The translations under genes were made by a program, and so were the position numbers. The notes under the pieces were generated by a model. That model saw nothing but the letters and a program-made list of their open reading frames with translations. It made no database searches and was not told the origin of the DNA. From the IMG/VR virus record IMGVR_UViG_3300030117_007501, positions 1 through 64,000 of that record: a stretch of 64,000 nt of DNA. One strand, given 5' to 3'. Positions 5,505 to 64,000 of the stretch are shown in pieces. Source of the DNA: a virus. Positions within the stretch are counted from its first letter, which is position 1, and every line of letters begins with the position of its first letter.

Positions 5505-6056
5505 ATGAAGAGAATATACAGGGAATGGAAGAAGTATTTGCTCAAGGAAGAGCTGGAGAAATACGTTGAAGGTGGAATGATAGAGTTGTTTCGTTTTTCA
5601 GCTCGAGATATGGACAAGATCCCTCTAGATCCAGAAAAGTTTCGAAGTGCTCGCATGTCTTATAGCAAGAATGATTACAATGTTTCTTCTTTCCCTAGAG
5701 TTTTCTTCTATTTGGATCCCTCACATCTGGAAACAGTCGTAGCAGGAGCTAAAAAAAACCTCTATTCTGTCAAAGTGTCGGCTTCTGACATATATGACTT
5801 AGTAGAGGATCCAGAAGACTTGTTGCACAAGTCGAAAAAGGCTTCGGGCATGGTAGTGCCTAATTTGGATAAAGTGTTGAAGTCCCTAGCTAAAGAAGAC
5901 AAGCCAGGGCTTTATCCAGAGTATTTCACCCCTATAAGGGATGAGGACGCACAAAGATATAAAGGTGTCTATTACCGAATAAACCAAGGAACAAAAGATA
6001 TTGTTATCTGGTTTGATAAAATAGAAGCAACAAGAGTAGAAAGAGAAGAAATATGA
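5505..6056 (+). CDS. hypothetical protein with W-type N-terminal leader (candidate virion-internal protein)
   Basis: 183-aa ORF starting MKRIYREWKKYLLKEE; GTAGTTAT immediately upstream. Confidence 0.6.
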   Translation: MKRIYREWKKYLLKEELEKYVEGGMIELFRFSARDMDKIPLDPEKFRSARMSYSKNDYNVSSFPRVFFYLDPSHLETVVAGAKKNLYSVKVSASDIYDLVEDPEDLLHKSKKASGMVVPNLDKVLKSLAKEDKPGLYPEYFTPIRDEDAQRYKGVYYRINQGTKDIVIWFDKIEATRVEREEI

Positions 6057-6352
6057 AAATTGGTGATGTAGTATATAATGAGTGGCACGGAATTAGAAGA
6101 TATGGTGTTGTGCAGTCGCTGAGCGTTAAGGAAGAGGGCTTGAATGTTCCTTGGGCATACGCTAGAGTTAAGTGGTTTGATGATGAACCTTACGAGAAGG
6201 TTGTGGAGAACACGAACCTCTTGAGGAATGACGGCACAGATATCTATAAAGACGAGTATAGAATTGATAAAATAACTAATATCAATTTGGATAGAGAGGT
6301 GTCGACATTGACTAAGATTAAGGAATATATTGAGCTGGAGGAGCTATATTAA
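6053..6352 (+). CDS. small SH3/KOW-like beta-barrel protein
   Basis: MKIGDVV...YGVV...ARVKWFD pattern. Confidence 0.55.
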   Translation: MKIGDVVYNEWHGIRRYGVVQSLSVKEEGLNVPWAYARVKWFDDEPYEKVVENTNLLRNDGTDIYKDEYRIDKITNINLDREVSTLTKIKEYIELEELY

Positions 6353-6353
6353 G

Positions 6354-6980
6354 ATGATGGAAGAAGTTATAGGAATATGGAGAAAATTTATTTCTGAGTC
6401 TTCTTTGTCTAGAGTTCACAGGCACATGGAACAGCGTGAAACAGCAGTGATAACAGCGTTCCGAGGAGACATACAGGATTCCAGCAAGTGCACAGAGCGC
6501 GCCGACACTCCTTCTGAGGGAGATGATAATCTTTCTAGAAATAGAGACTTAAAGGCGGCATTGTTATCTCTCGGTTACGGAGTCACGAAGGCAAAGGGCT
6601 CTTATATAGAGAACTTCAATACACCTGAAGCTTTCGAAGTTAGCGAAGACAGCATGTTTGTGGTGAACCTCGAAGATGATCCAAGCTTTGTCGATTCTAT
6701 AACTACTTTGGGTGAGAAATATTGTCAGGATTCTGTACTAATAATACCGAAGGGCGCCGAAGGCGCCTATCTGATGGGAACCAACAATTCTGAGTTTCCT
6801 GGGTATGGAAACAAGATAGAAGTCGGCGAGAGAGATTTCGGAAGAGAAAAAGAGTTTATGACCAAGGTTAGAAACCGCCCCTTCACGTTCGGAGAAGGGC
6901 TCGAAACTTATAAGAAGCTTTCTAGAAATGAGAGGATGGCAGTTAAGGCAATTGCCAAGAAAGTTTTAAAAAACACTTGA
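6354..6980 (+). CDS. phage protein with W-type leader, possible SAM lyase-like fold
   Basis: GGAGGAG RBS before ATG 6354; ITAFRG, GSYIE, EDS, QDSVL motifs. Confidence 0.45.
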   Translation: MMEEVIGIWRKFISESSLSRVHRHMEQRETAVITAFRGDIQDSSKCTERADTPSEGDDNLSRNRDLKAALLSLGYGVTKAKGSYIENFNTPEAFEVSEDSMFVVNLEDDPSFVDSITTLGEKYCQDSVLIIPKGAEGAYLMGTNNSEFPGYGNKIEVGERDFGREKEFMTKVRNRPFTFGEGLETYKKLSRNERMAVKAIAKKVLKNT

Positions 6981-7005
6981 TTTTTATATAAATTAGTGTT
7001 AATAT
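6977..7005 (+). promoter_or_regulatory. sigma70-type promoter
   Basis: TTGATT-N17-TAATAT. Confidence 0.5.
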
Positions 7006-7041
7006 AATATTACAAAACAAAACAACTAAAGGAGTTTTAAC

Positions 7042-7335
7042 ATGGGTGCGAATTTGTCTATTGTGAGCAACAGCGATACAACCACTATGAGCGTGGAGCA
7101 AAAGGAGACTCACATCACGAGCTATATTAAGAATATGGCTGCAATTGAGGATGCTATGGAGCCGTACAAGGAGTCTAAGAGAGATCTTAAGACTAATTTT
7201 ATTGAAAATGGTTGGCTCACCAAGGAAGAGATTTCAATGGCTGTAAAAGCATACAGAATGATGAAAAGCAATACTGACATTGAGCAGCTGCTGGATTTTT
7301 ACCAGCACGTCAAGAAGACTATCGAGGTGAAGTGA
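7042..7335 (+). CDS. small helical DNA-binding protein (T4 DsbA/GapR-like)
   Basis: strong AAGGAG RBS; helical pattern ITSYIKNM..IE...KE..RDLK. Confidence 0.4.
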   Translation: MGANLSIVSNSDTTTMSVEQKETHITSYIKNMAAIEDAMEPYKESKRDLKTNFIENGWLTKEEISMAVKAYRMMKSNTDIEQLLDFYQHVKKTIEVK

Positions 7336-19409: not shown

Positions 19410-20466
19410 TGATACTTTGTCGTTTGACGATGTGCTTTTGGTGCCTCAAAAGAGCGATATTGAGAGTAGGAAAGAGATAGATACAAGCTCAGTGTTGAAC
19501 GGTACAAGCTTTAGCTTGCCGATTATCTCAAGTCCGATGGATACCGTGACTGAGCTGGACATGATGTCAGCTCTTGCGACTGCGGGAGGTTTTGGCATCT
19601 TGCATAGATACAATTATATTGCCGAGCAGGTAAAAACAGTAAAGGCAGCAAAGCAGTTTGGGGCTACGAGTGTCGCTGCAGCAGTTGGCGTCACCGCTGA
19701 TTTCGAAGTGAGGGCGAAAGAGCTTGTTGACGCAGGAGCAAACATTATATGTATCGACGTCGCTCATGGGCACCACACCAACGTAGAGAGAGCGTTAAAA
19801 ACCCTTAAGGATGCTTTCGGTGACACGGTTACTATTATCGCAGGCAATATTGCAACAGACGATGGATATGCTGACTTATGCAGATGGGGAGCAGATGCAG
19901 TCAGGGTTGGCATCGGAGGAGGGAGTATCTGCTCAACGAGAATTCAGACAGGGCACGGATTAAGTACGTTTCAGTCAATTATGGCGTGCAGCATGGCTAG
20001 GACAGCTGCGGCTTCTCCGTTTCATTCTTCAGAGAAGTATGATTTCGATCCAAAGCCCATCATCGCTGATGGGGGGATTCGATCATCTGGAGACATCGTG
20101 AAAGCTATAGCTGCAGGTGCAGACTTTGTTATACTGGGTTCGATGTTGGCAGGAACATCAGAAGCGCCGGGCACTGTGTTTACCAATGGTTCCGGAAAGT
20201 CGTATAAGGCATACAGAGGAATGGCGTCTAGAGAGGCACAGGAGGACTGGAGAGGGACTGCTAGCTCTCTTGAGGGTGTAGCTACCACCATACCCTATAA
20301 AGGCAGCGTGAAGCCAATACTGGAAGATATCCACCAGAATATCCGAAGCGGCTTTTCGTATAGCGGTGCAAGAAATATCAAAGAGTTGAGAGATAACGCA
20401 AGGTTTGTGCTACAAACCGTAAGTTCTCAAACAGAAAGCGGAACACACATTCTCAATGTCAGGTAA
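19402..20466 (+). CDS. IMP dehydrogenase / GMP reductase family (no CBS domains)
   Basis: [36 protein letters not shown]. Confidence 0.92.
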
Positions 20467-20797
20467 GAAGATATACAGTTATGGGATGGAGGGGAAAGCG
20501 ATAGTCTTCGTCGATGATGACAAGCGCCATGCTGATTTGAGAATAAGGCTCCGACATGATGGGCTAACTCAAACAGAATTCTTTCAGAGCATGATAACTG
20601 GATATTTGAACAACGACGAGAGAATAATAGAATATATAACATCAGTTAAGTATGAACTGGCAAAGCAAGGTAAGAGAAGAATTATGAAGTCAAAGAAAAT
20701 GTTAGATAAGGGCAAAGAGCTGTTGAAAGACTACTCGTTCTCAGATGAGGAGAGGGATGAGCTATTCGATATGATAGCGGAGGAGTTGATTGAATGA
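20456..20797 (+). CDS. ribbon-helix-helix-like protein
   Basis: KAIVF...HADLRIRLRHDGLTQTEFF pattern. Confidence 0.4.
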   Translation: MSGKKIYSYGMEGKAIVFVDDDKRHADLRIRLRHDGLTQTEFFQSMITGYLNNDERIIEYITSVKYELAKQGKRRIMKSKKMLDKGKELLKDYSFSDEERDELFDMIAEELIE

Positions 20798-21042
20798 AAC
20801 AGTGTTCTCGCGAGTGTATGGAGAGAAATTATGGATGTGAACAGACAGAGTGCAGAATGTGGATGGACTTCGAAGAGGACTTTAATTGCTCATTGATAGC
20901 TGTATATAAGCACGGAGAGATGACATTGGAACAGGTAGGGGAAAGGCTCGGAGTTAGCTTCGTGCGTATCCGACAAATAGAACAACAAGCACTTCAGAAA
21001 GTTAGAAAGAGGGCAGGCGAATTGTCTATTAAAAAAACCTGA
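20794..21042 (+). CDS. stand-alone sigma70 region 4 HTH protein with Cys-rich N-terminus
   Basis: MTLEQVGERLGVSFVRIRQIEQQALQK; five Cys in the first 32 aa. Confidence 0.8.
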   Translation: MKQCSRECMERNYGCEQTECRMWMDFEEDFNCSLIAVYKHGEMTLEQVGERLGVSFVRIRQIEQQALQKVRKRAGELSIKKT

Positions 21043-21059
21043 CTTTTGTTGATATGAAA

Positions 21060-21068
21060 ACTATTTAC
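21060..21068 (+). promoter_or_regulatory. candidate phage late promoter ACTANTTA
   Basis: ACTATTTAC; same motif recurs upstream of other late-type genes. Confidence 0.5.
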
Positions 21069-21129
21069 TGTAAGAAAATTTGTTTCTTTAATTGCAATTA
21101 AAAAGAACTAAACAAAGGAGAAAGTCATT

Positions 21130-21717
21130 ATGAGCAAGAAACTACTCTCGGAGGCAACTATTCGTAGATTTATGAAGTTGGCTTCCATCGATACCCTCGG
21201 AGGTAACAAGTTTTTGAAGGAGTCGGATACCGACACTGAGGAGACAGTAACCGAGGAAGAGGAAATTAATGAGATGGGCGCACCAGCATATGCGCGCGAC
21301 GAGGAGGAGCTTGAGCCAGCTGCCGAAGACGAGCTTGGCGATGAGCCTGCTCTTGATGACGAGCCTGCTCTTGATGACGAGCCTGCTCTTGATGCACCCG
21401 CAGAAGAGGGCGAAATGGTGTTGAGTGATGACGAGGCAGAGATTCTTGTTGCTCTCGGCGACAGGCTCCGCGCTGCAGGCGCAGGAGAGGGAGAAGACGA
21501 GATGGGAGCGGAAGAGGAGCCCCTCGAAGCAGATATGGAGATGGGCGAGCTTCCACCAGAAGGTGAGATTCCAGCAGAAGAGCCTGCTGAAGACGACGAG
21601 CTTCTTGAGGACGTCGATGTCGTCACCAACAAGGACTTCGACAACATGGTTAATGAGATTTTGAAGCGCGTGACTAAGAGAATACTACGAGAGAGTATGA
21701 ACACTTCTAAAAAGTAG
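21130..21717 (+). CDS. very acidic protein, possible prohead scaffold/core protein
   Basis: LLSEATIRRFMKLA N-terminus, D/E-rich body, many L/I/V-x-E sites. Confidence 0.5.
   Translation: MSKKLLSEATIRRFMKLASIDTLGGNKFLKESDTDTEETVTEEEEINEMGAPAYARDEEELEPAAEDELGDEPALDDEPALDDEPALDAPAEEGEMVLSDDEAEILVALGDRLRAAGAGEGEDEMGAEEEPLEADMEMGELPPEGEIPAEEPAEDDELLEDVDVVTNKDFDNMVNEILKRVTKRILRESMNTSKK
21343..21394 (+). repeat. 18-bp in-frame tandem repeat (about 2.9 copies)
   Basis: GAGCCTGCTCTTGATGAC encoding EPALDD. Confidence 0.9.
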
Positions 21718-21741
21718 TACTTGTGACGGCTTCTTGTAAAT

Positions 21742-21779
21742 CCCCCTTTTTCTTTAAAACAGAGAAGGGGGTTTTTTTT
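21742..21779 (+). terminator. intrinsic terminator
   Basis: CCCCCTTTTTCT...AGAGAAGGGGG stem followed by T8. Confidence 0.8.
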
Positions 21780-21780
21780 G

Positions 21781-21808
21781 TTGACAATTTGATGAAAGTT
21801 GGTATAAT
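21781..21808 (+). promoter_or_regulatory. sigma70-type promoter
   Basis: TTGACA-N16-TATAAT, very close to the 21815 ATG (possibly leaderless). Confidence 0.7.
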
Positions 21809-21814
21809 TTAGTT

Positions 21815-22219
21815 ATGGATTTTTGGATTGCAGCTGGACTTTTTTTTGCAGGCGTAGCCTCGCACAAGTTTATATCATATTGTTTAAACCTGGGCTATGG
21901 CTCTGTAGCATATAGAAAGCTCGAAGATGCTATGCTAGATATGCTTATGGCACTAGACGTAGACATGAGAATAGCGCTGGAAAAGAAATACAAACACCTA
22001 GAAGAGTCAGGAATATCCCCAGAAGAAATAAAAAAGCGTAAATTACTCGATTCAGAGATAATTGTTAAGTGGAGAGATGCCGTCATTGCAAACGTCGTTG
22101 TCTCTCTGCCAGAATCATTCTATAGGTATGTCAATTATACGACATGGGATGAGGCAGTGCAATACGCAAGAAAGAGAAATAGAAAAAGCAAAGGGAGGAC
22201 AGAAGATGGCAGAAATTGA
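21815..22219 (+). CDS. hypothetical membrane-anchored protein
   Basis: hydrophobic N-terminus, 134 aa. Confidence 0.55.
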   Translation: MDFWIAAGLFFAGVASHKFISYCLNLGYGSVAYRKLEDAMLDMLMALDVDMRIALEKKYKHLEESGISPEEIKKRKLLDSEIIVKWRDAVIANVVVSLPESFYRYVNYTTWDEAVQYARKRNRKSKGRTEDGRN

Positions 22220-22502
22220 AGCAGTTATGTGGAAGGTTAGCAAAGAAAGCGATACTTATGTTTTTCAACTAACCTCTGGTAGTCAGAGACTTCTCAAGAA
22301 AGCAATTAAGGAAGTTGGGGGTAGAGAGTCTGGAAACGGATATGACGCTTTGCGAAACAAAAAGATAGTTTTATTGCAAAGGGACTTTGAAGACAAAGAA
22401 TCTCTAAAGGAGTTTGCAAATGGGCTATCCTTTAATTTATCAGAAATATCTAAAACCGGCAAAGAAAGGATCATCAATGCCAAAAGAAAAAAGAAAAACT
22501 AA
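22206..22502 (+). CDS. hypothetical protein
   Basis: GGAGG RBS before ATG 22206. Confidence 0.55.
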   Translation: MAEIEAVMWKVSKESDTYVFQLTSGSQRLLKKAIKEVGGRESGNGYDALRNKKIVLLQRDFEDKESLKEFANGLSFNLSEISKTGKERIINAKRKKKN

Positions 22503-23178
22503 GAAGAAAGAGAAAAAGGAAGTAGAGTTGAAGGAGCAGGAGGTTGTAGTTGAGGATCCGGAAGAGGAGTTTCTGGATTCAGAAGAGAGATTCATCATAA
22601 TCAACAATATTGAACAGCCAACAAGCGATGGTTCGAGCTTAATTAGGAGCATTTCCTTGTACGGCGACTTGACAGAGGACAACGCCTCTGACATTGTACA
22701 ATCTTTTATGTTTTTGAGGGAGTTGTCGCACAGGCTCCAACTTAGTGGTGATGAAGAGGAGTGCAAGCCTATTGAGTTCCTTATTTCATCACACGGCGGC
22801 GTCGCCGCTGAAATGTTCGCCATCTATGATACCATGAGGATGGTACGTCAGTCTTGTGAGGTGAGTACCATTGGGATGGGGAAGGTTATGTCCGCTGGTG
22901 TTGTCCTGTTGGCAGCAGGAACAAAGGGAAAGAGAAAGATTGGAGCCAACTGCAGAGTTATGATACACAGTGTTAATGGCGGATATCACGGAAACCTAAC
23001 AAACATGGAAAATGAAATCGAAGAAGTTAGATGGATTCAGGAAAGGTACGTAGAGTGTCTTGCCGCTGAGTCGAACATGACAGAGAGAGAAATTAAGAAA
23101 TACCTCAAAAAGCACGTGGACGTTTATCTATCGGCAGAAGAGGCTGTCGAGCTGGGAATTGCGGACATTATTGTTTAA
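22477..23178 (+). CDS. clpP: ClpP-like protease
   Basis: ISSHGG, AIYDTM, VMSAG (Ser), VMIH (His), DVYLSAEEAVELGIAD. Confidence 0.92.
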   Translation: MPKEKRKTKKKEKKEVELKEQEVVVEDPEEEFLDSEERFIIINNIEQPTSDGSSLIRSISLYGDLTEDNASDIVQSFMFLRELSHRLQLSGDEEECKPIEFLISSHGGVAAEMFAIYDTMRMVRQSCEVSTIGMGKVMSAGVVLLAAGTKGKRKIGANCRVMIHSVNGGYHGNLTNMENEIEEVRWIQERYVECLAAESNMTEREIKKYLKKHVDVYLSAEEAVELGIADIIV

Positions 23179-23183
23179 AAGAG

Positions 23184-23192
23184 ACTAATTAT
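23184..23192 (+). promoter_or_regulatory. candidate phage late promoter ACTANTTA
   Basis: ACTAATTAT in the clpP-23209 gap. Confidence 0.5.
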
Positions 23193-23208
23193 ATACTGAG
23201 GTACGTGC

Positions 23209-24210
23209 ATGTCCAGAGTAGATGAAATAATCAACAAAGCAAAGAAAAAACCGTTTGACGTAGGAAGCTTAATAGATTTGGTGGAGAGCGTCTTGGCTAC
23301 TCCAATTTCGTTGTCTGAGGACGCTGGTGAGGCGTCCTCGACTGACGAGGTTTGCTTGTTAATACCTGATTTCCGTATTGATCCAAGTTGGATGTCTGTC
23401 GACGAGGGAAATTATGATACCGAAAGAGCCAAACTAGCCAAAGCAATAGAGGCAGTAAGGCTACCTAGAGAAATAACAAACCTTGAAGGATTTATTACGG
23501 GAATCAATGGGATACTCTCAGAAAGAAACGTGGATGTGTCAGATCATGCCGCCGCAATTTCTAGAATTCAATTGCTGAGAATATTTTACAACCTTGCAAC
23601 TGCGCCCGACGAGACGATATCAGGCTTCCTGTTTGAATCTCTCATGGCGATGGTGTTTGGGGGCGTGAGGATTCCGACTGATGATAGAGAGAACGGAGTT
23701 GTTGACGTGGCTTTTCCGGGCGTCCCGGTTTCATTAAAGTTTATAAGAAGCAAGAGAACGAACATAAAGGGCTCCCTCGACAAGCTTCAGTTAGCTCTTC
23801 GGACATATCCTGCCGGTATAAAGTATATCATAGCAGACAAGCAGGGCGACGCAATTGAGTTTTATGAGTTCGACATCGACAACGATCAGGACTCCCCCAA
23901 TTATTGGGGCTTGTTGCCGACTTATAAGACGCAGTTTAGTGTTAGTCTTAAGAAGTTGAGAACAGAAAGGGAAGTTAGAAAGCTTACAACCCTGCGGTTC
24001 TCGGGCATAGAGAGGAAAACTCAAAAAATACTGGACGCACTGAACGCAAAATTTGAAAACCTACTTTCAACATTAAATGACTTGAACTTACAGGTAACTG
24101 ATTTGTTGTATGTCACAACGGAACCAAAAAAGACAAAGAGGCTCGCTGGCAAGACAGCAAGAAAGGCTCAGAAAACTAAGAAGTCTGCAGAAAAAGTTCA
24201 AAATAAATAA
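23209..24210 (+). CDS. PD-(D/E)xK-like nuclease-fold protein
   Basis: GFLFESLMA...VVDV...VSLK arrangement. Confidence 0.45.
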   Translation: MSRVDEIINKAKKKPFDVGSLIDLVESVLATPISLSEDAGEASSTDEVCLLIPDFRIDPSWMSVDEGNYDTERAKLAKAIEAVRLPREITNLEGFITGINGILSERNVDVSDHAAAISRIQLLRIFYNLATAPDETISGFLFESLMAMVFGGVRIPTDDRENGVVDVAFPGVPVSLKFIRSKRTNIKGSLDKLQLALRTYPAGIKYIIADKQGDAIEFYEFDIDNDQDSPNYWGLLPTYKTQFSVSLKKLRTEREVRKLTTLRFSGIERKTQKILDALNAKFENLLSTLNDLNLQVTDLLYVTTEPKKTKRLAGKTARKAQKTKKSAEKVQNK

Positions 24211-24284
24211 CGAATCCCCTTTACAACACACCAAAATGTGTTTATAATATAATATATCGTTTTAACAATCAACGAGAGGAAAAC

Positions 24285-25862
24285 ATGTCTAAAAAATTTG
24301 CATCCGGAGCTAATCTCCGACAGAAGATACTTGATGGAGTTAATGTCCTGGCGGACAACGTAGCTTCAACACTAGGACCACGTGGCAGGAATGTGATAAT
24401 TCACGAAAAAGGAAAACGCCCCGTGATCACGAAGGATGGAGTCACTGTGGCTAAGTTTATTGAATTCGAAGACGAGTTCATGAACGCTGGCGCCCAAGTG
24501 GTTAAGCAGGCTGCAGCCAAGACTAATGTCGACGCTGGCGACGGCACAACCACATCTACAGTTCTTGCGCGTGCAATATTCAATGCAGCTTCTGATCATA
24601 TTGTGGACGGCTCTTCAGCACCCATTGAGATTAAGAGAGGGATTGATAAAGCTGTGAACGCAGTTAACGAGCTGCTGTTGGAATCAGCCCGCCCAATTCA
24701 AAGCGCGGATGATGTTGCCCATATCGCAACCATCTCCGCTAATGGCGATGAAGATATCGGGAACTTAGTAGCTCTCGCTGTTGATAAGGTGGGCAAGGAC
24801 GGTTCTATCACCATTGAAGAAGCGCGATCGGTGGATACAAGTTTGGACTTAATGGAAGGCTTCAGGTTTGATTCGGGGTACGCAGCTACAGCATTTATTA
24901 CTGATGATAGGAGGGGCGTGGTTCGCTACGAGGATCCCATCTTTCTCATTACTGATGAAAAGATTGAAACTGTAGATCAGATATTGCCAGCCCTTGAGGT
25001 AGCGGCTCGCGAGTCTCGCCCCTTTGTCATTGTTGCTGACGACATCGAAGGACAGGCATTGGCGGCACTCATCATGAACTCCATGAGGGGCACCATGAAA
25101 GTTGCGGCAGTTAAGGCTCCAAGGTATGGTGAAGAGCGTCGAGGCATTATGAGCGACTTAGCAATTTCGGTTGGTGCAAAGTACTTCCGACGCTCCGCCG
25201 GAGACAAACTTAAAGAAGCAAACCTCACAGACTTCGGCTCAGCGAAGACAGTAGAGATTGAAAAGGGCACAACCACTGTAGTCGGAGGTAACGGAAATCT
25301 TGAAGAGGTGGAAAACAGGATTGATGCACTGAAGGCGGAAATTGAACAAACAGACTCCCTGCACCAAGCGGAGCGAGTACAGGACAGGGTTACCCGCCTA
25401 GCCTCCGGCGTCGCTGTTATTAGGGTTGGGGCTGCAACGGAGATTGAGATGATAGAGAAGAAGCATAGAATCGAAGACGCACTAGAGGCTGTCCGGTCGG
25501 CTCAACTTGAGGGGGTTATTTCTGGTGGTGGCACGGCGCTATTAATGTCGTCAACAAAGCTTGTGGTAGACACTGAAAACGAACACCAGGAATCTGGTGT
25601 GGATATCGTCCGACGTGCACTACAGGAACCTATTCGTCAAATGGCGAGTAATTGTGGCATGGATGTAGAAGACACACTGCAAACTATCACCGAAGCTTCG
25701 AACGGGATGGGAATTAATTTTGCAACCGGAGAGCTTGTCAACATGTTTGATGTAGGTATCATCGATCCAGTAAAAGTGACAAGGAGTGCCTTGCGAAATG
25801 CTGCCTCTGTAGCCGGAACTCTTTTGACAACTAACCATGCTATTATAGAATTGGAAGACTAG
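24285..25862 (+). CDS. groEL: chaperonin GroEL
   Basis: TLGPRGRNV, TKDGVTVA, GDGTTT, KAPRYGE, GIIDPVKV. Confidence 0.97.
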   Translation: MSKKFASGANLRQKILDGVNVLADNVASTLGPRGRNVIIHEKGKRPVITKDGVTVAKFIEFEDEFMNAGAQVVKQAAAKTNVDAGDGTTTSTVLARAIFNAASDHIVDGSSAPIEIKRGIDKAVNAVNELLLESARPIQSADDVAHIATISANGDEDIGNLVALAVDKVGKDGSITIEEARSVDTSLDLMEGFRFDSGYAATAFITDDRRGVVRYEDPIFLITDEKIETVDQILPALEVAARESRPFVIVADDIEGQALAALIMNSMRGTMKVAAVKAPRYGEERRGIMSDLAISVGAKYFRRSAGDKLKEANLTDFGSAKTVEIEKGTTTVVGGNGNLEEVENRIDALKAEIEQTDSLHQAERVQDRVTRLASGVAVIRVGAATEIEMIEKKHRIEDALEAVRSAQLEGVISGGGTALLMSSTKLVVDTENEHQESGVDIVRRALQEPIRQMASNCGMDVEDTLQTITEASNGMGINFATGELVNMFDVGIIDPVKVTRSALRNAASVAGTLLTTNHAIIELED

Positions 25863-25899
25863 TTAGTCTGTCTTGTCCTATATTCAGGAGGAATTTACC

Positions 25900-26181: not shown

Positions 26182-26186
26182 AACAC

Positions 26187-26215
26187 TTGACTTTTAAAAG
26201 ATTTGGTGATATACT
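26187..26215 (+). promoter_or_regulatory. sigma70-type promoter
   Basis: TTGACT-N17-TATACT. Confidence 0.65.
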
Positions 26216-26221
26216 TTTAAT

Positions 26222-30219: not shown

Positions 30220-30315
30220 TATAAAATCTGATATATTTTAAAAAAAGCCTTGCATGCAAGAAATGCGTGCTTATATTATATAAAGTCCGGGAACACGAAA
30301 AGGAGAAACTTGAAA

Positions 30316-55105: not shown

Positions 55106-55127
55106 AATACCAATATTGGGAGCCGGT

Positions 55128-56204
55128 ATGAAAATCACAAAGAAAAACTTAATGAATATGATTAAAGCACAACTTGAAGAGGTGCTTAGCGACGATGATA
55201 GATTTAGAGATTTGCCAGGATATGAAGAGTATACAGATGGCGAGAAATTGAAAAGAAGACGCAAGAAAAAGCCGGCAGATGATAATCCAGACGAAAGATG
55301 GCGCGAAGACGATCCGATATTCCGGAGCCACCTAGAAGAAGAGCTAACATCGGAAGGTTGGATAGATTCAGTTAAAAGCGCCATGGGATTCGGAAGCCCC
55401 AAGAAAGGAAAAAGCCTAGAAGAGCTAATGCAGGAAACAATCGAGGCAGCAGAGCCGCTCGAGCCAGTAGGCAGAGAACGAATGGATCCAGCAGGGTACC
55501 CAGGATTTAACGCTATAGCATCAGCGTTTGGCAGAGGAGCATATGCCGGAGCGGGACATGATGCAGTACTAGAGCTAGATACAAAGATTCTAACTATAGC
55601 CGGCATGGTAGAGGGCGTATACGCAGCTGCAGCCGGTGCGCAAAAGGAAGCTGTCGCGGCAGGAGCTAGTGAAGAAGACGCTCAGCGCGCATACCAAGAG
55701 GCATGGGCAAACATATCAAACGACGTACGTACAAAGTTCATGCACGTCGAATTGAGTGTTAAGACATACGAGATGGTATACCGAAACCAGTACATAATCC
55801 CTTATATAAAAAAGAATTCTCCTGACGGCATTAAGAAAGCCGCAAAGGAAAGAGAAAAAGCCAGAAGAACGTTCGAGATAAACGCCGCATGGATATCAAA
55901 CTTAGAGTTGGGCAAATCTTTAAGATTGGGCGCTGCAGCGCGCGGACAAAAATTAGAGGAAAATATCATGAAAATTTCGAAAAACAAGCTTAAGAATATG
56001 ATTAAAGAAGAATTGGAAGAAGCTATGGCGCAACCTTCCCTAAGAGACGTGGCAGCTAGCTTGCAAGACGCAGCTGCAATATTGGTAACCGGCAAAGTAC
56101 TCGAGGCACTGCAATCCAGCGGTAACATGGAAGAGTACCTCGAGGCAGATATGATATTCAGAAAACTGCTAGACTTAAAAGATGCGGTAAGGAATAAAGA
56201 ATGA
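55128..56204 (+). CDS. MKIT-leader protein with a second internal leader
   Basis: MKITKKNLMNMIKAQLEE at 55128 and MKISKNKLKNMIKEELEE at 55968. Confidence 0.65.
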   Translation: MKITKKNLMNMIKAQLEEVLSDDDRFRDLPGYEEYTDGEKLKRRRKKKPADDNPDERWREDDPIFRSHLEEELTSEGWIDSVKSAMGFGSPKKGKSLEELMQETIEAAEPLEPVGRERMDPAGYPGFNAIASAFGRGAYAGAGHDAVLELDTKILTIAGMVEGVYAAAAGAQKEAVAAGASEEDAQRAYQEAWANISNDVRTKFMHVELSVKTYEMVYRNQYIIPYIKKNSPDGIKKAAKEREKARRTFEINAAWISNLELGKSLRLGAAARGQKLEENIMKISKNKLKNMIKEELEEAMAQPSLRDVAASLQDAAAILVTGKVLEALQSSGNMEEYLEADMIFRKLLDLKDAVRNKE

Positions 56205-56647
56205 GAGCATTGATTGCAGCATTAGTTATAATCATGATGGCTGCTGCAACAGTAATTAGCTGCTCTTCTGCTCCCCCAACACCTAGAAATGCCGAATTAA
56301 CAGTTACATACTACGGCAAAGAAATCAAAAAAGAAAAACCCACATGGACAAATGAATCACGTTTAAGAGAAGTGCTTAAAAAACCCGGAAAAAAATTTCT
56401 GGTTTTTGGAGCTGATTGGTGTGACGCATGCAAGTTTTTGCGCCGCGCATTGCGCGAGGGAAATCTCCACAGCGCAGTCGAAAACCTGAATATCGATGTA
56501 CGCTGGGTTAATGCTATAGCAAGTATATACGGAATTAAATCAGTACCTACACTGCTAGCCTTAGACTCAAATAACAATATTGTTGCTGTTCGCGAAGGCG
56601 CCGGCCCAATAACTGTTTATCTTTTATTGAATATCGACATTAAATAA
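56201..56647 (+). CDS. thioredoxin-like lipoprotein
   Basis: lipobox VISC; FGADWCDAC; SVPT. Confidence 0.8.
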   Translation: MRALIAALVIIMMAAATVISCSSAPPTPRNAELTVTYYGKEIKKEKPTWTNESRLREVLKKPGKKFLVFGADWCDACKFLRRALREGNLHSAVENLNIDVRWVNAIASIYGIKSVPTLLALDSNNNIVAVREGAGPITVYLLLNIDIK

Positions 56648-56682
56648 CTACTTATACTGTACGCTTAAGGAGCTTAACTATC

Positions 56683-56886
56683 ATGAAAATCACAGAATCA
56701 AAACTGCGCTCTATCATTAACGAAGAAATCAAAAAAGCGCTGGTTAAAAATATCGAAGAAGGAAGCTTTGATCCCGGACATCTTAAGACTGTCCCTTCGG
56801 GCGTTGATCCCGCCGTTGGCGAGTGGGTTATCGACGAGCTTAACCTTATATGGAGTAAAATAAAGGAGCTGCAAAGCAGAGCTTAA
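56683..56886 (+). CDS. MKIT-leader protein
   Basis: MKITESKLRSIINEE. Confidence 0.65.
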   Translation: MKITESKLRSIINEEIKKALVKNIEEGSFDPGHLKTVPSGVDPAVGEWVIDELNLIWSKIKELQSRA

Positions 56887-56888
56887 TT

Positions 56889-57218
56889 ATGAAAATTAAA
56901 AAAGAACAACTAGATCAAATTATTGCTGAAGAAATCAATAGTGTTGTCGAAGAGAGTGAAAACCTCGAAGAAGGCTTTTTTAGTACTATCGCCGGGCTTG
57001 GCTTGGCTTATTGGCTTGTCAAAACTTTACTGGGTAAAAGAATCGCTGCGCAGATAGAAGAAGATCCTGAACTTCGAGACGCTGTTGATCAAGGCAACAA
57101 AGAAATTGAAAATGCAATGAACCAAATTTCATCTCCTGAGTCTCGTCAACGCCTTAAAGACGATGTTTCCGGTTTGTTGAGTGATATTGCCGCTGCAATC
57201 AAGAAGAGGCTCGGCTAA
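56889..57218 (+). CDS. MKIT-leader protein with hydrophobic helix
   Basis: MKIKKEQLDQIIAEE...LEEGFFSTIAGLGLAYWLV. Confidence 0.65.
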   Translation: MKIKKEQLDQIIAEEINSVVEESENLEEGFFSTIAGLGLAYWLVKTLLGKRIAAQIEEDPELRDAVDQGNKEIENAMNQISSPESRQRLKDDVSGLLSDIAAAIKKRLG

Positions 57219-57219
57219 G

Positions 57220-57582
57220 ATGACGTCATCGCGACTTCAAGCTATAATTGAGGAAGAAATCGGCAAGTATCTCATTGAAGCCGGTGCTTCTCAACTTATC
57301 GGCGATTACAATATCGATGTTATAACTGAAGACAAAGAATGCATATACGCATTAAACGTTGTCAAGAAGTATGTCGATCGACGCGGAGGATGGCAGTTTA
57401 GTGAACCTGAATACGCTCAAATAGGTAATATATTATCTGAGGCTATCTCTCTCATCAAAACTATAATCGACAAAAAGGAGGCTGCTAAGCCTCCTGTTTC
57501 CCCTCCACCTTTAAGGATGCCTGCTGATCCTGATGCGCAGGTGGCTCCTCTGCGTCTGACGCGTTCAACGAAATTCGCTTAA
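57220..57582 (+). CDS. leader-bearing hypothetical protein
   Basis: MTSSRLQAIIEEE. Confidence 0.55.
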   Translation: MTSSRLQAIIEEEIGKYLIEAGASQLIGDYNIDVITEDKECIYALNVVKKYVDRRGGWQFSEPEYAQIGNILSEAISLIKTIIDKKEAAKPPVSPPPLRMPADPDAQVAPLRLTRSTKFA

Positions 57583-57610
57583 TTAATTTAATTAACTTAT
57601 AGTTATTTCC

Positions 57611-57829
57611 ATGTCAACATTGCTAATAATTATTAACTGTGCTATAATGTCCATATGGACTGCTTGCTTGGTATACACACACATCAAGCTTGTCAATAGC
57701 GCTATTAAGCAATTCGAAGAGCAAAACAACAATCTAACTAAAGAACTTGAAAAGCAAAGAAAAACAAAAACATTCAACATGCGTAATACAACTATTGCCG
57801 AACCTGAAGGCAAAGAGTTTTATTATTAA
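57611..57829 (+). CDS. small TM + coiled-coil protein
   Basis: N-terminal TM helix. Confidence 0.45.
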   Translation: MSTLLIIINCAIMSIWTACLVYTHIKLVNSAIKQFEEQNNNLTKELEKQRKTKTFNMRNTTIAEPEGKEFYY

Positions 57830-57840
57830 GGAAGCACACC

Positions 57841-58032
57841 ATGAAGATTGAAATTGGTACCCTCATAACCATCATCACCCTAAGCATTGCTATCGGTGGA
57901 GCATATTATTCAATGTCTGATAATATCTCTGATCTCGAGACTAAAGTCGCCATTTTGGAAAAAACAATCAAAAAGTGCAAATGTGGGCATAAAAAAATTT
58001 CCCCGCGAAAAAAATCAAAATTTCGCGACTAA
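57841..58032 (+). CDS. small TM + coiled-coil protein
   Basis: N-terminal TM helix, LETKVAILE. Confidence 0.5.
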   Translation: MKIEIGTLITIITLSIAIGGAYYSMSDNISDLETKVAILEKTIKKCKCGHKKISPRKKSKFRD

Positions 58033-58059
58033 TTACAACATAACTTAAGGAACTCATTA

Positions 58060-58491
58060 ATGAAACTCAAAACTTCATATATTAAAAAAATTATCCGCGA
58101 AGAAATCGATTCGAATCTTCCCGACTCCAACAGGTGGCGAGACTTTTGGCTAAATGGGCCGGGTGGGCAATTTGCTGATTCTGATGATACCACCCGGCGC
58201 ATTGTCGAGCTTTTTGTTCAAGACTTGCGCAAAATGACTGCGCATGCGGATGCTGTTATTGAGAAGTCTGAGTGGAGTAGCGGGCCCGACAATGCTGCTT
58301 TCTTTCGCATGCGTGAGTTTATGAGAAGCAAGTGGTTTGGCAAAACGGGGATTCTGTCCACCAACATGCCACCCCGCTCTTCGGAGTTTCTCCAGAACTA
58401 TAAAGATTGGGGCATGCCATCGTGGGGAGAGAGTCGTTCCGCAGCTCAGTGGGCTCAGACAGACTTTTTTCACAATTGGTTGGGAGAATAA
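58060..58491 (+). CDS. MKIT-leader protein
   Basis: MKLKTSYIKKIIREE. Confidence 0.6.
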   Translation: MKLKTSYIKKIIREEIDSNLPDSNRWRDFWLNGPGGQFADSDDTTRRIVELFVQDLRKMTAHADAVIEKSEWSSGPDNAAFFRMREFMRSKWFGKTGILSTNMPPRSSEFLQNYKDWGMPSWGESRSAAQWAQTDFFHNWLGE

Positions 58492-58492
58492 C

Positions 58493-58654
58493 ATGTGCAT
58501 TATATGTATTGAGCTTGAAAAAGACAAACTCACAGCTTCAGAGGCGTTTCGAAACTTTTGGGAAATGAAGGACTCAATTGAAGAAGAGCATATCGAGGAA
58601 GTTACCGAAGCTATACTTACAGCATTTCACGAAGAACTTGGAGAAGAACAATGA
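58493..58654 (+). CDS. small CxxC protein
   Basis: GGAG RBS; MCIICIE...KLTASEAFRN..EM. Confidence 0.55.
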   Translation: MCIICIELEKDKLTASEAFRNFWEMKDSIEEEHIEEVTEAILTAFHEELGEEQ

Positions 58655-58941
58655 AAAAAGAAGATATAATTAAAATGATTCAAGAGGAAGTAACTCAAAT
58701 TTTGAATGAACATTCTCCTGATGACTTCTCAGATCTGGAAGGGCGAGAGGAGACTAGCTGGGAACCAGATGAGGTTGGTGATGTTATACAAGCTGGAGTG
58801 ACTGCTGTTGTTGAAGCTCTTTACTCATATGATCCAAGCCAGGATGCTCTCGATGCATTAGAATTACAGGTTAAAGAAGCTTTGTCATCCATTAGGGGCG
58901 GAGTTATCGAAGACATTGTGTCAGGTAAAGCGAGGATATGA
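58651..58941 (+). CDS. leader-bearing hypothetical protein
   Basis: MKKEDIIKMIQEE..ILNE. Confidence 0.55.
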   Translation: MKKEDIIKMIQEEVTQILNEHSPDDFSDLEGREETSWEPDEVGDVIQAGVTAVVEALYSYDPSQDALDALELQVKEALSSIRGGVIEDIVSGKARI

Positions 58942-59192
58942 AGTGGGGCGTTAAAATATTAACGCTTTTATTTATTTTCTCCTTCCTGCCTATCTCTGCG
59001 TCTGCTCAAAATAAAGATGCAAAAACAAAATTTTATAACTTCGACGACTTACTTATCGACGGTAAAGTGCAGAAACCAAAAGTACTTTGGGTGGATGCAC
59101 GCCAGAAAGTCAAATTCGAAAAGCTTTTAAAGCTAAAAAAAGATTTCATGCCCAAGCTCTTAGGCACAAGAAAAGACATGTCTCTTCGATAG
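58938..59192 (+). CDS. CglF/GltF-like secreted small protein
   Basis: signal peptide ASA-Q; FYNFDDLLIDGKVQKP...ARQKVKFEKLLKLKKDFMPKL. Confidence 0.6.
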   Translation: MKWGVKILTLLFIFSFLPISASAQNKDAKTKFYNFDDLLIDGKVQKPKVLWVDARQKVKFEKLLKLKKDFMPKLLGTRKDMSLR

Positions 59193-59263
59193 CCGATTTT
59201 ATTCAAGATTACAGAAAAACAAACTAGTTATTATATTAATATTGAAAAGGAGTTCATAATATT

Positions 59264-59731
59264 ATGAAAATTACCAAGAAAACACTTGAGAAAATGATAA
59301 GAGAGTCTCTCGAGGATAGATTTAATGTAAGCGAAGAAGCAGCACCTGACGTGGTTGACATGTCTTCTTCCTCGCTTCCCGGAGAAGTTAAGAGAGTCCT
59401 CAATATACCGAGAGCAGACGAGATACTTGCTTCGCTAGCAGATGCCATTGAAGCTCAAAAGTCTCCTCAAATAAAGGCAAACGTATACACTCTTATATTA
59501 CAAGCCATCGGATTGGATACTGTAGACGAACTGCAGGCATTTCGCAGTCTCATCCAAACCCGACTAGCTAAGGCAGAAAGCGAAGGCGCGAAAGAATCAG
59601 AACTAGCACAAGCAGAGACGTCAGCACCACCACCGGTTGATAGCGCAGCAGACTTAGAAGAGAATAAGCAATTTGCCGCCGTACTCAAAAAACTAGTGCA
59701 GCAGGAAATTAAAAACACTACTAGAAAGTAA
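59264..59731 (+). CDS. MKIT-leader protein
   Basis: MKITKKTLEKMIRESLE. Confidence 0.65.
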   Translation: MKITKKTLEKMIRESLEDRFNVSEEAAPDVVDMSSSSLPGEVKRVLNIPRADEILASLADAIEAQKSPQIKANVYTLILQAIGLDTVDELQAFRSLIQTRLAKAESEGAKESELAQAETSAPPPVDSAADLEENKQFAAVLKKLVQQEIKNTTRK

Positions 59732-59745
59732 TCGGAGATATAACA

Positions 59746-60078
59746 GTGAATATAACAAAAAACACGTTAAAGTATCTGATAAAAGAAACAATGTACGATA
59801 TGGTTAATGCTAAGACTCCCGATTCCTCATCGTACATAGAAGACGAAGTTTCCAAAGAAGCTGAACGAGAAATCTCTTGGGGGAAAGTTCTGGACTCCCT
59901 TAACCCCCAAAGAGAAGAAAATAGCGAGCATTTTAGAAACATTGTCCTTAAAGCTATGACTCTCGCAGCTGAAGAAAATTCAGAATTTTTGTTGGACATG
60001 ATGGAAGATATCACAGATGATTCTGAGGTTAGAAATATACTAATGAATCATATCGAAAAGATATTTAAAAATGAATAA
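59746..60078 (+). CDS. MKIT-leader protein
   Basis: MNITKNTLKYLIKE. Confidence 0.6.
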   Translation: MNITKNTLKYLIKETMYDMVNAKTPDSSSYIEDEVSKEAEREISWGKVLDSLNPQREENSEHFRNIVLKAMTLAAEENSEFLLDMMEDITDDSEVRNILMNHIEKIFKNE

Positions 60079-60099
60079 ATTTAATGTAATATAACACTT

Positions 60100-60588: not shown

Positions 60589-60597
60589 GAGAGTAAC

Positions 60598-60912: not shown

Positions 60913-60921
60913 GGGGGTACC

Positions 60922-61098: not shown

Positions 61099-61112
61099 AT
61101 ACTATTTATTGT

Positions 61113-61523
61113 ATGAAACTTATTATGAAAGGCTGGAGACTTTTTGTGAATGAGAGCAAGGATAGTAAGATAGTGGCAAAGATTGTTCTTATTGACGAAG
61201 ATAACAAGGTATTGTTTCTTAAGAGAACAAACTATGTGAAGAAATATGCCGGAAAGTGGGATTTGCCTGGTGGACATGTGCACGAAAACGAAGCCGTAAT
61301 TGATGGACTTCGAAGGGAAGTGAAGGAAGAGACAGGACTTGACATAAAAAACGTCGAAAAAATAAAAGATGTGGGAAACCACAAGTACTTCAAGGCTACT
61401 TTACCCAAAGGTGAAGTTAAATTAAGCTCTGAACATTCGGAATCTAAGATGAGAGACGTAAAAAACATCAAAAATCCTAACAAATATGAAAAAATAGTAC
61501 AGGAAATTTTCGAAAATGACTGA
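61113..61523 (+). CDS. Nudix hydrolase with W-type leader
   Basis: WDLPGG...E......RREVKEETGL Nudix box. Confidence 0.9.
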   Translation: MKLIMKGWRLFVNESKDSKIVAKIVLIDEDNKVLFLKRTNYVKKYAGKWDLPGGHVHENEAVIDGLRREVKEETGLDIKNVEKIKDVGNHKYFKATLPKGEVKLSSEHSESKMRDVKNIKNPNKYEKIVQEIFEND

Positions 61524-62352
61524 TTTTAAAAACAAGTGGAACAAATATCTCACCGAACAAGAGTTCGATGCTTCAAAATTGACTATCAAGGATAAACTTA
61601 ATTCAAAATTTTGGAACAGAGGTAGGCTTGAGCCCGAAGTAAGAGGCAGATTGGCTGAAATAGCAGAAGAATTTTACTCTTCCGTGCAGGAATCTGCTCC
61701 GAGTGCTCCAAATTTCGAAGATATAACGTTCACAGGCTCTCTCGCCAGCTACAATTATCACGGCGCTAGCGATATAGACTTGCATTTGTTGGTAGACTTT
61801 AGCGAAATAGGAGAAACTGAAGAAATTTTATCGGAATTTTTCGCCCTTAAGAGAATACAATGGAACAATAGCCACAATATTCGAATATTTGGACACGAAG
61901 TTGAGATTTATATACAAGATATAAACGAAGAGCACTTTTCAAACGGGGTTTATTCAGTCCTTCTCGGCGAGTGGCTTGAGATGCCAGTCAGAGAAGAGAT
62001 AGATATTGATTTCGAAACTACAAAAAAGAAGTACGAAGCATTATCTCTTGAAATTTCTCAACTTTCGAAACTTTTCCAAAAGAAAGAGTACAAAAAAGTC
62101 TATGATCATGCCTCTAAACTAAAGGAAAAGATTAAAAACATGCGCGTAGCAGGATTAGAGGATGAAGGTGTCTATTCTGCGGAGAATTTGGCGTTTAAAA
62201 TGTTAAGAAACAATGATGAAATCAAAGATTTGATGTCTTTGAGGACAACCTCATATGATATGATGATGTCAATGAGTAAAGAAGAGACAAAAAAAATAAA
62301 CATATCTGAAAATTGGAAACTATTTCGTAAAGGAGGCTTGGTAAATGGATGA
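61516..62352 (+). CDS. pol-beta-like nucleotidyltransferase with W-type leader
   Basis: TGSLASYNY...SDIDLH...EVEIY. Confidence 0.75.
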   Translation: MTDFKNKWNKYLTEQEFDASKLTIKDKLNSKFWNRGRLEPEVRGRLAEIAEEFYSSVQESAPSAPNFEDITFTGSLASYNYHGASDIDLHLLVDFSEIGETEEILSEFFALKRIQWNNSHNIRIFGHEVEIYIQDINEEHFSNGVYSVLLGEWLEMPVREEIDIDFETTKKKYEALSLEISQLSKLFQKKEYKKVYDHASKLKEKIKNMRVAGLEDEGVYSAENLAFKMLRNNDEIKDLMSLRTTSYDMMMSMSKEETKKINISENWKLFRKGGLVNG

Positions 62353-62680
62353 TTCAATGAAAAAATGGAAAAATTTTCTTTTAAAAGAGGAAAATGAGTT
62401 GGATGTAGTCGACAAAAGCCCCGTAGTAGATGCGAGAAGAGGAGATTCGGAAATTCTTGGCGAATATTTGCAAGAAATTCAAAACATGGCAATGAGAATT
62501 TTAGAAATGGAGAAAGAAATTAAAGAAAAAGAGCTTTCTTATTATCCTGGGTATGAATTTCGAAATGCCGCAAAGCAACTAGCTGACGCTGACGAGTTTG
62601 GTAGCCTCGCCAACAGACTCAGTAGGTGGATATCCAACGAAACTAGGATGAAAACCCTCCGTCACGAACTCGAAAAGTAA
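62345..62680 (+). CDS. W-type leader protein
   Basis: MKKWKNFLLKEE. Confidence 0.55.
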   Translation: MDDSMKKWKNFLLKEENELDVVDKSPVVDARRGDSEILGEYLQEIQNMAMRILEMEKEIKEKELSYYPGYEFRNAAKQLADADEFGSLANRLSRWISNETRMKTLRHELEK

Positions 62681-62682
62681 AA

Positions 62683-63024
62683 ATGACTAAATATAAGGCA
62701 AAACTAATCCGGATTGTCGACGGAGACACCATCGATGCAGAAATCGATGTAGGTTTTGACGTATTTGTTAGAAAAAGGATTCGTTTATGGGGAATTAACG
62801 CCCCTGAGACGCGTTCTACGGATAAAGATGAGGTTAAGGCTGGGGAGATGACTTTACGTCGCCTGAGCGAGATTCTAGCCCTCTCAAATGGCGAATTTGA
62901 GCTGATAACTCATGGTGATGGCAAGTTCGGCAGGTGTTTGGGGGAAATATTCGTAAAAGATCATAAGGAAAGCGTGAATCAGGTACTAATTAATGAAGGA
63001 TTCGCTACGGAGTACGAAAAATGA
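62683..63024 (+). CDS. thermonuclease (SNase-like)
   Basis: VDGDTID, RIRLWGINAPE, GKFGRCL. Confidence 0.88.
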   Translation: MTKYKAKLIRIVDGDTIDAEIDVGFDVFVRKRIRLWGINAPETRSTDKDEVKAGEMTLRRLSEILALSNGEFELITHGDGKFGRCLGEIFVKDHKESVNQVLINEGFATEYEK

Positions 63025-63329
63025 AAAAGCTTTTTGAAAATTGGTATGGGTACCTCGAAGATCACCCGGATGCACCAACACCAGGGGAGATTGCAGATGA
63101 AAAAAGATATAACGAGAGGATTGGAAAGCTACAAGACATGGTTATGCAAATCGCGCCCGATATTGTTGCCCGTTTAATAGGGCTTAAGAGCCCCGGACAG
63201 TTTATAGACTCTGAAGATTTCGCCGCTGACGTTGCCTTTCAAGCGGAAGGTAACAACCTTGACGAATTGTGCGAATGGCTACTAGAAGAATTTAACGTCG
63301 ATATATCAGATGTAGACGAAGAGGGGTAG
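63021..63329 (+). CDS. W-type leader protein
   Basis: MKKLFENWYGYLE. Confidence 0.55.
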   Translation: MKKLFENWYGYLEDHPDAPTPGEIADEKRYNERIGKLQDMVMQIAPDIVARLIGLKSPGQFIDSEDFAADVAFQAEGNNLDELCEWLLEEFNVDISDVDEEG

Positions 63330-63333
63330 TCGC

Positions 63334-64000
63334 GTGCCAAATTCGTTTCATAAAATTTGGAAACAGTTCCGAACAGATCCAGCACTACTCCTAGAAGCAA
63401 GAATAAAGGACATAAAAGCAAAATACCCCGATTTAGATCTATCTGGTTTCATAAATTACGGCCGCGATCAAATACAGAGCGAACTTGGGCCCAAGGGAGT
63501 TTCGAAATATCTCTTATGGTTTGCCCGTGAAATGCACAATAATTTTAAAGACGACATAGAGGAAGATCAATATTGGCACTCGAATGCTCGTTTCGACGAA
63601 GACGTTTTCGCTGTCGCGCGAGAAATACTAAGCACTATTGAATTGTTTCATATTAGACATCAAAGGTTAGAAGATAAAGATATTTACAACTATAACTCGG
63701 CAGAAATTCTTTCTATGCTCGAAAAAATGGGCCCGTCTGAGAGAGAGAAGAGACAGCGCAAGAAAGAAGAAGCGATGGAAGGATCTGAAGTCGTGTATGA
63801 TGATAATAATATATTTGCAATTCGCCCATATACAAAAGAGGCTTCTTGCTTTTATGGCAAAAACACCAGATGGTGCATATCCGCTACTGAATCTCGAAAC
63901 TATTTTCAACAATACACTTCAGAATATCAAGCATTTGTGATGGCGAGATTTGATAATATCCCTACTACCAACGAGCTTCACAAGCTTGCTCTTGTTTATA
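63334..64000 (+). CDS. partial ORF running off the window, W-type leader
   Basis: missing from the track; MPNSFHKIWKQFR...LLLE...SCFYGKNTRWCIS; no stop seen. Confidence 0.65.
   Translation, partial: MPNSFHKIWKQFRTDPALLLEARIKDIKAKYPDLDLSGFINYGRDQIQSELGPKGVSKYLLWFAREMHNNFKDDIEEDQYWHSNARFDEDVFAVAREILSTIELFHIRHQRLEDKDIYNYNSAEILSMLEKMGPSEREKRQRKKEEAMEGSEVVYDDNNIFAIRPYTKEASCFYGKNTRWCISATESRNYFQQYTSEYQAFVMARFDNIPTTNELHKLALVY

Follow-up and report, generated by a model that had tools for sequence, protein, structure and literature searches.

A short N-terminal tag on unrelated proteins of an uncultured marine T4-like phage, a possible variant of the T4 capsid-targeting propeptide

Results

A 14-residue motif recurs at the N-termini of unrelated proteins

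We analyzed a window of 64,000 nucleotides that forms the first 64 kb of a 158,282-bp IMG/VR viral record (IMGVR_UViG_3300030117_007501; 87% complete), together with the remainder of that record. The phage is an uncultured, marine, T4-like virus, a distant member of the T4 superfamily, and its + strand carries nearly all genes. A genome-wide scan (158 kb) recovered an N-terminal motif of 14 residues, with the consensus MKLIMENWRKFVNE, on at least 13 unrelated proteins; we refer to this motif here as the 'tag' and to the rest of each protein as its 'body'. All seven N-termini that a first-pass annotation had picked out in the window are present, as follows:

5505-5549, + strand: tag MKRIYREWKKYLLKE, heading a 183-residue protein (gene 5505-6056); Trp at residue 8, ending Leu-Lys-Glu
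6357-6398, + strand: tag MEEVIGIWRKFISE of a protein of the S-adenosylmethionine (S-AdoMet or SAM) lyase family (gene 6357-6980)
61113-61154, + strand: tag MKLIMKGWRLFVNE of a NUDIX hydrolase (gene 61113-61523; PF00293 at residues 21-94)
61516-61557, + strand: tag MTDFKNKWNKYLTE of a nucleotidyltransferase-like (NTase-like) protein (gene 61516-62352; phrog_36119)
62345-62389, + strand: tag MDDSMKKWKNFLLKE of a 111-residue protein (gene 62345-62680); Trp at residue 8 with that start
63021-63059, + strand: tag MKKLFENWYGYLE of a 102-residue protein (gene 63021-63329); Glu one residue nearer than in the consensus
63334-64000, + strand: 5' part of an 820-residue gene that ends at genome position 65796, with the weakest tag, VPNSFHKIWKQFRTD...LLLE

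Six further tagged genes begin outside the window, at 73663, 74187, 74477, 76410, 76852 and 77516. The key residues of the consensus are Trp8, Phe/Tyr11, an aliphatic residue ([LIV]) at position 12 and Glu14; residue 8 is Trp (or Phe) in 12 of the 13 proteins, and three members deviate from the key residues (63334, 74477 and 76852). The expression W..[FY][ILV].{0,2}E matched eight to nine times within the first 13 residues of proteins, versus once in ~47,000 internal positions, and that single match fell in a doubtful open reading frame on the minus strand. The N-terminal clustering of the motif thus exceeds chance.

The tag behaves as an addition to bodies that share no ancestry

The 13 tagged bodies are mutually unrelated (best pairwise E = 0.18), and this ruled out paralogy of the bodies as the source of the shared N-termini. 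Recognizable domains were found in 3 of the 13: a NUDIX domain (PF00293), the S-AdoMet-lyase family (PF23780) and a weak NTase-like match. The description of these leaders in the first-pass annotation as fused to enzymes consequently holds for these three bodies and not for the rest.

AlphaFold models separate the tag from the fold. In the NUDIX protein, whose predicted local distance difference test (pLDDT) score was 88, residues 1-13 scored below 50 and the fold starts at residue 17; in the SAM-lyase-like protein (pLDDT 73), scores below 50 fell exactly on residues 1-14 and the domain starts at residue 16. Homologues of the NUDIX protein have a constant body start, KDSxxVAKIVL, preceded by many variants of the Trp-containing tag (W-tag), by another N-terminus (MIRVKIV..ND) or by nothing. 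Phage homologues of the NTase-like protein align from about residue 12-24, past the tag, to residue 248. In 42 aligned homologues of the 6357 protein, Glu14 is invariant and Trp8 is more than 90% conserved, and across the tagged proteins of IMG/VR conservation ends directly after Glu14. Because low confidence is confined to the tag and body starts are fixed, we read the motif as an add-on, as had been proposed, and not as an integral helix of each fold; the Pfam NUDIX match, which starts at residue 21, agrees with this. By itself the tag is modelled as disordered; as a helix it would be amphipathic (hydrophobic moment 1.6), and it is portable onto unrelated bodies.

One protein carries a second, tag-like stretch, which is indeed present at its C-terminus as the first-pass annotation had reported:

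62302-62325, + strand: ISENWKLF, residues 263-270 of the 278-residue NTase-like protein encoded at 61516, beyond the end of the homologue alignment (residue 248)

Two related tagged NTase-like proteins have no C-terminus of this kind. The stretch is probably the relic of a lost downstream cassette start; by analogy with T4 Alt, which has a C-terminal propeptide (PMC5694885), it is possibly a C-terminal propeptide instead.

Such a relic would also suit the idea that the conserved element is the DNA, as a recombination joint or a translation-initiation signal, with the peptide incidental. Tags could promote cassette exchange, as has been proposed for the internal-protein loci of T-even phages (Repoila et al., 1994, as summarized in PMC9026906), and the Trp-Arg codons TGGAGA mimic a Shine-Dalgarno site well enough to have misled a gene caller. 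Against this, the tag codons vary synonymously (AGA/CGA, CTT/CTC, ATT/ATA, TTT/TTC) and the upstream DNA is unconserved, which excluded a DNA repeat, and distant homologues retain the peptide pattern with different residues. Selection, as far as these sequences reveal it, is acting on the tag peptide, and we find a DNA-level explanation barely credible.

The resemblance to a ribosome-binding site has a practical side for annotation. In the public gene call of the NUDIX gene (window 61113-61150), the start was placed at the GTG of Val12 and the tag was skipped. Since TGGAGA imitates a Shine-Dalgarno site, gene callers can miss the tag, and annotated proteins may systematically lack such tags.

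Two leader families share one register

An adjacent gene cluster carries the first family of leaders:

55116-60078, + strand: cluster with the other leader type, MKITKKxLxxIIxE, in the same register as the W-tag

The leaders of this family (genes 56683, 56889, 58060, 59264 and 59746) have hydrophobic residues at positions 8, 11 and 12 and Glu at 14. A generic pattern covering both families shows 3.5-fold N-terminal enrichment; of its 16 N-terminal matches, 11 begin at residue 8, and both families are among them. In 120 homologues of the SAM-lyase-like protein, all of the sequence before the body is a tag with [LIV]-x-Glu at its end, mostly a W-tag and in some cases the other leader type (MDIKELKKLV...LLTE). 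Both leader types thus replace each other at one junction among these orthologues. The common register and the exchange in orthologues argue for one design in two flavours, which is what the two families look like from their sequences; the earlier suggestion of two addressing routes into the head finds no support in these observations.

The tag is widespread among large T4-like phages with an S77 protease

An exact MKxIMENWRKF was found in 16 contigs of IMG/VR, and at least 120 viral contigs matched a looser form of the tag pattern. Among the matches listed, 213 distinct tagged proteins fell into 109 body clusters; these include NTase-like and NUDIX sequences and, judged by eye, P-loop kinase-like, HAD-like and 2H-like ones. 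A 22-residue tag sequence gave no meaningful tblastn match in cultured phages, prokaryotic genomes (bacterial and archaeal) totalling 596 Gb contained no match to the consensus, and a literature search for the motif string ENWRKF returned no matching paper. The W-tag clade seems to be uncultured.

The absence from prokaryotic genomes bears on the idea that the tag is an N-terminal degradation signal, read for example by ClpXP, that limits the lifetime of proteins during infection. One N-terminal recognition class of ClpX is said to follow the pattern Met-basic-hydrophobic(3)-X5-hydrophobic (reportedly Flynn et al., 2003), which MKLIMENWRKF would fit, and the tag is exposed and disordered. However, a degron for a host protease would be expected on host substrates too, and the consensus is missing from all prokaryotic genomes searched; a degron also has no need for a conserved Glu14 junction and leaves both the link to S77-protease phages and the T4-type tags unexplained. 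We regard it as improbable.

That protease link is as follows. The genome encodes a terminase, a portal protein and a gp21-type (Peptidase_S77) prohead protease at 153.8 kb:

153803-154234 of the record (G000): gp21-type Peptidase_S77 prohead protease, 108.8 bits

The nearest cultured relatives of this protease, at less than 50% identity, are those of cyanomyoviruses and Flavobacterium phages. Among the matches listed, all seven tagged genomes that are at least 90% complete have an S77 protease, and completeness estimates for tagged fragments imply parent genomes of about 180-190 kb. In one complete relative (G004), a W-tagged gene of 288 residues lies immediately downstream of the protease gene, and in two further relatives (G001 and G002) the gene in the same place has the other leader type. 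In the sequences covered, the tag is restricted to large T4-like phages with an S77 prohead protease of their own.

The gene content of the genome also speaks to whether the tag might be a recognition leader for a modifying enzyme of the radical-SAM/SPASM kind. The radical-SAM family PF04055 was not found in the genome, whereas the control search was positive in 14 of 14 reference genomes; because the record is 87% complete, this absence falls short of absolute. No single conserved gene accompanies the three tagged clusters, and we consider this explanation very improbable.

A further alternative is that the tag docks, as a helix, onto some partner outside the prohead core (a chaperone of phage or host, a hub of replication or assembly, or the membrane), and that it localizes or regulates its bodies in the cell with neither encapsidation nor cleavage. 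Disorder alone combined with strong amphipathicity if helical (moment 1.6) is typical of helices induced by a partner; the acidic bodies include enzymes of a metabolic type; a replication module contains two tagged genes; and GroEL- and DnaK-like proteins appear, by eye only, to be encoded. This alternative nonetheless leaves unexplained why an invariant Glu falls precisely where the tag meets the body, why the spacing is that of the T4 capsid-targeting sequence (CTS), why T4-type tags take the place of the tag in orthologues, and why a W-tagged gene lies beside the G004 protease. On balance we think it rather unlikely.

Individual tagged genes and their neighbours

The body of the 5505 protein matched no Pfam or PHROG family. 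Gene 6357 has an alternative ATG at 6354, which would give (M)MEEVIGIWRKFISE; its product scored 40.4 bits against PF23780 (cut-off 28), and a fold search returned T3 SAM lyase structures as best matches, with modest scores. The match of the 61516 protein to 2rff is weak (E = 0.03) and covers a GS...DxD motif. A GGAGG lies 8 nt upstream of 62345, and a CTAATTA at 62986 lies 35 nt upstream of gene 63021. In the tag at 63334, counted from V1, Trp is residue 9, Asp replaces the Glu at +6, and Leu-Leu-Glu follows at residues 19-21; the body of this protein had no family match.

One gene in the cluster is different:

62683-63024, + strand: staphylococcal-nuclease-like gene, untagged (PF00565, phrog_452), N-terminus MTKYKAKLIRIV

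It is untagged though it lies amid the tagged cluster, and this may be because an active nuclease inside the capsid would put the packaged DNA at risk.

By the look of the N-termini alone, GroEL-type and DnaK-type chaperones appear to be encoded at window positions 24285-25862 and 30250-32205. A tRNA-like sequence (…GGCGTAGCTCAATTGG…GGTTCGAGTC…), judged from its letters, lies at about 39700-39830 of the window, just upstream of gene 39838, and further tRNA-like sequences lie near 75.6 kb and 80.5 kb of the genome.

Two genes of the head region deserve mention. The protein of 275 residues encoded after the portal gene (genome 151914-152741) is conserved in the clade and contains ...NTAFVYEALIRE; its residues 15-21, YEALIRE, have the spacing of the T4 CTS. 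It may belong to the prohead core and be cleaved internally or late. The gene right after that of the protease (154323-157235) encodes a protein of 970 residues; in relatives, far smaller tagged genes occupy this place, and the large protein may be an enlarged scaffold or core component. A protein of 139 residues is likewise encoded beside the protease. A Pfam Gp23 search of the record for the major capsid protein (MCP) gave no match, and the controls were equally silent.

Two candidates were set aside. The propeptides of relatives' MCPs (…LLSKWERTGLLEG…) are only loosely tag-like, and the idea that the tag mimics the capsid protein was dropped. The N-terminus of the protease itself, MKLIREYFELCE, has a tag-like look that does not fit the register, and it was not used as evidence.

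Clues to expression timing

Sigma70-like promoters (TTGAC-N17-TATAAT; TCTTGACTT-N17-TATAAT) cluster at 21-53 kb, before small genes:

21781, 33694, 35452, 38464, 40824, 44196, 51734 and 52705 of the window: sigma70-type promoters

This block is probably the early region. Tagged genes are absent from it and present elsewhere (0/64 vs. 12/117, p = 0.009); the motif is thus not equally frequent on early genes, an outcome that would have counted against the first-pass reading, but the evidence on timing is weak.

The T4 late promoter, TATAAATA, was tried as a timing marker and proved uninformative, with just four copies. A second sequence, CTAATTA, is strand-biased (17 on the + strand vs. 3 on the - strand):

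23185, 45969, 58029 and 62986 of the window: CTAATTA; 55098 and 59224: CTAGTTA
67865, 71181, 76398, 82818, 115126, 115542, 129368, 139544, 151824 and 157881, in the rest of the genome: further sites of the motif

It lies 12-47 nt upstream of gene starts, including those of gp25-like and gp6-like baseplate(-wedge) genes and other genes of the structural region, and it also precedes two tagged genes (63021 and 76410), three genes of the other leader family and an ATPase gene. From its placement, CTAATTA is a candidate late promoter in place of the nearly absent TATAAATA of T4, and a mere candidate it stays since it precedes an ATPase gene as well.

Discussion

A possible route into the phage head

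We favour, with moderate confidence, the reading that this lineage has its own variant of the T4 capsid-targeting propeptide and that the motif is that variant. Speaking for it are the T4-like spacing, the constant N-terminal register, the portability of the tag and its independence of the folds, its restriction to T4-type phages with the protease, the exchange for T4-type tags in orthologues and the place of the W-tagged G004 gene in the head module. Under this reading, Trp8 and Phe/Tyr11 would anchor the protein to the scaffolding core as the prohead assembles; the aliphatic residue 12 and Glu14 would form a [LIV]-x-Glu site that the gp21-type (Peptidase_S77) protease cuts after the shell has closed; and the freed body would remain in the head and enter the host cell with the DNA. 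Core binding, cleavage after Glu14, encapsidation and injection are the steps that we infer, and by this route the phage probably packages a varied kit of proteins for injection with its DNA.

Several observations weigh against this reading. The bodies do not resemble the small, highly basic internal proteins of T4: their isoelectric point (pI) is 4.1-6.0 in 9 of 12 proteins and their sizes range from 94 to 820 residues, and the more than 100 cargo families exceed by far anything documented for T4. The Glu at the presumptive cleavage site is missing in some members (76852, ...FIDAGG; 63334, ...FRTD), and the residue after WRKF in relatives is sometimes Ser, Thr or Gln instead of aliphatic, so that a strict L/I-x-E rule is sometimes broken. 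The record, at 87% completeness, ends before the capsid gene, and with the MCP absent from it the phage's own cleavage rule cannot be read. Phages whose homologues are untagged (Lak-C1, Molly and LR756504) carry weak S77-like domains inside larger open reading frames, which makes them uninformative as a negative control for the protease link. Finally, tagged genes 5505 and 6357 come straight after a ribonucleotide-reductase-like gene within a module for replication and nucleotide metabolism, and this placement suggests early or middle expression.

A more ambitious and decidedly tentative proposal, which we hold to be possible and would not lean on, is that a clade of roughly 150-190-kb marine T4-like phages has a programmable capsid-loading code, in which two to three interchangeable tag flavours of one register (Trp, aliphatic MKITKK and T4) load more than 100 unrelated families for co-injection, including likely counter-defence and nucleotide-modifying enzymes (SAM-lyase-like, NUDIX, NTase-like and kinase-like). 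Copy number, location within the core or the order of release might depend on the flavour.

If encapsidation by the tag is borne out, the load-then-clip mechanism of T4 would reach beyond the T-even coliphages and their three small internal proteins, and the T4 superfamily would possess a general, evolvable delivery system that injects large and varied sets of proteins, enzymes included, at the first moment of infection in the ocean. A tag on a 'hypothetical' gene of a marine myovirus would then predict a virion-delivered protein and flag a candidate first-strike counter-defence factor, and the packaging of proteins in phage capsids would gain new targeting peptides of natural origin.

Comparison with known systems

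The T4 CTS is MKTYQEFIAE and is removed by a single cut after Glu (PMC8442874). Mapping of T4 IPIII with amber suppressors assigned residues 4 and 7 to targeting and residues 8 and 10 to processing, and Asp at position 10 stops cleavage and leaves targeting (PMC9026906). The T4 CTS and the tag described here are both N-terminal and portable, start with Met-Lys, end in [LIV]-x-Glu and have the same spacing of an aromatic residue (i), a hydrophobic residue (i+3), an aliphatic residue (i+4) and Glu (i+6); both phages encode a gp21-type S77 protease, and in both the tagged genes are clustered. The tag differs in length (14 residues versus 10, the aromatic one being preceded by four more, LIME) and in having Trp for Tyr. 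The first-pass annotation had judged this leader the closer in form to the T4 sequence; the residue spacing is indeed equal, but the 10-residue sequence itself is not matched, and because spacing alone is shared, the tag would be a variant distinct from that of T4. The cargo differs as well: T4 loads small basic internal proteins, whereas each genome here would load about 13 proteins, mostly acidic and some with enzyme domains, and the body families of the clade number more than 100.

A likeness also links the tag to the giant phages phiKZ and SPN3US, in which ejection or inner-body proteins have long N-terminal propeptides cut at S/A/G-x-Glu by an S80 protease (PMC5694885). There too the propeptides are N-terminal, are thought to target the prohead and are removed after Glu by a gp21-related protease; they differ from the tag in being 80-130 residues long, with no common short sequence.

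Other T4-type phages have still other versions of the tag on their orthologues of the 6357 protein (Mel-JY01, MQFKQYILGE; Cr30, MRKFSQLLED; DSL-LC02, MNLQEFVD). A further parallel is Paraglaciecola Antarctic GD virus 1 (GD1/PANV1, MW805361), which has an S77 protease and in which at least 13 proteins begin MK[ST][FY]xx[FY][ILVM]xE, two of them encoded on either side of the protease gene. Its tagged genes lie at 6388, 7805, 20162-28014, 53022 and 54516. The GD1/PANV1 genome paper mentions neither internal proteins nor the tag (PMC9239159). One of these proteins, gp48 (MKTFSEFLGE|SGLSR), is the orthologue of the 6357 protein of the window (MEEVIGIWRKFISE|SSLSR), with the tag at the same junction. 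GD1 and the phage described here thus each have at least 13 unrelated tagged proteins, and the GD1 tag, at 10 residues, has nearly the T4 sequence; as a cultured Antarctic phage, GD1 would be a tractable system for the study of multi-cargo capsid loading.

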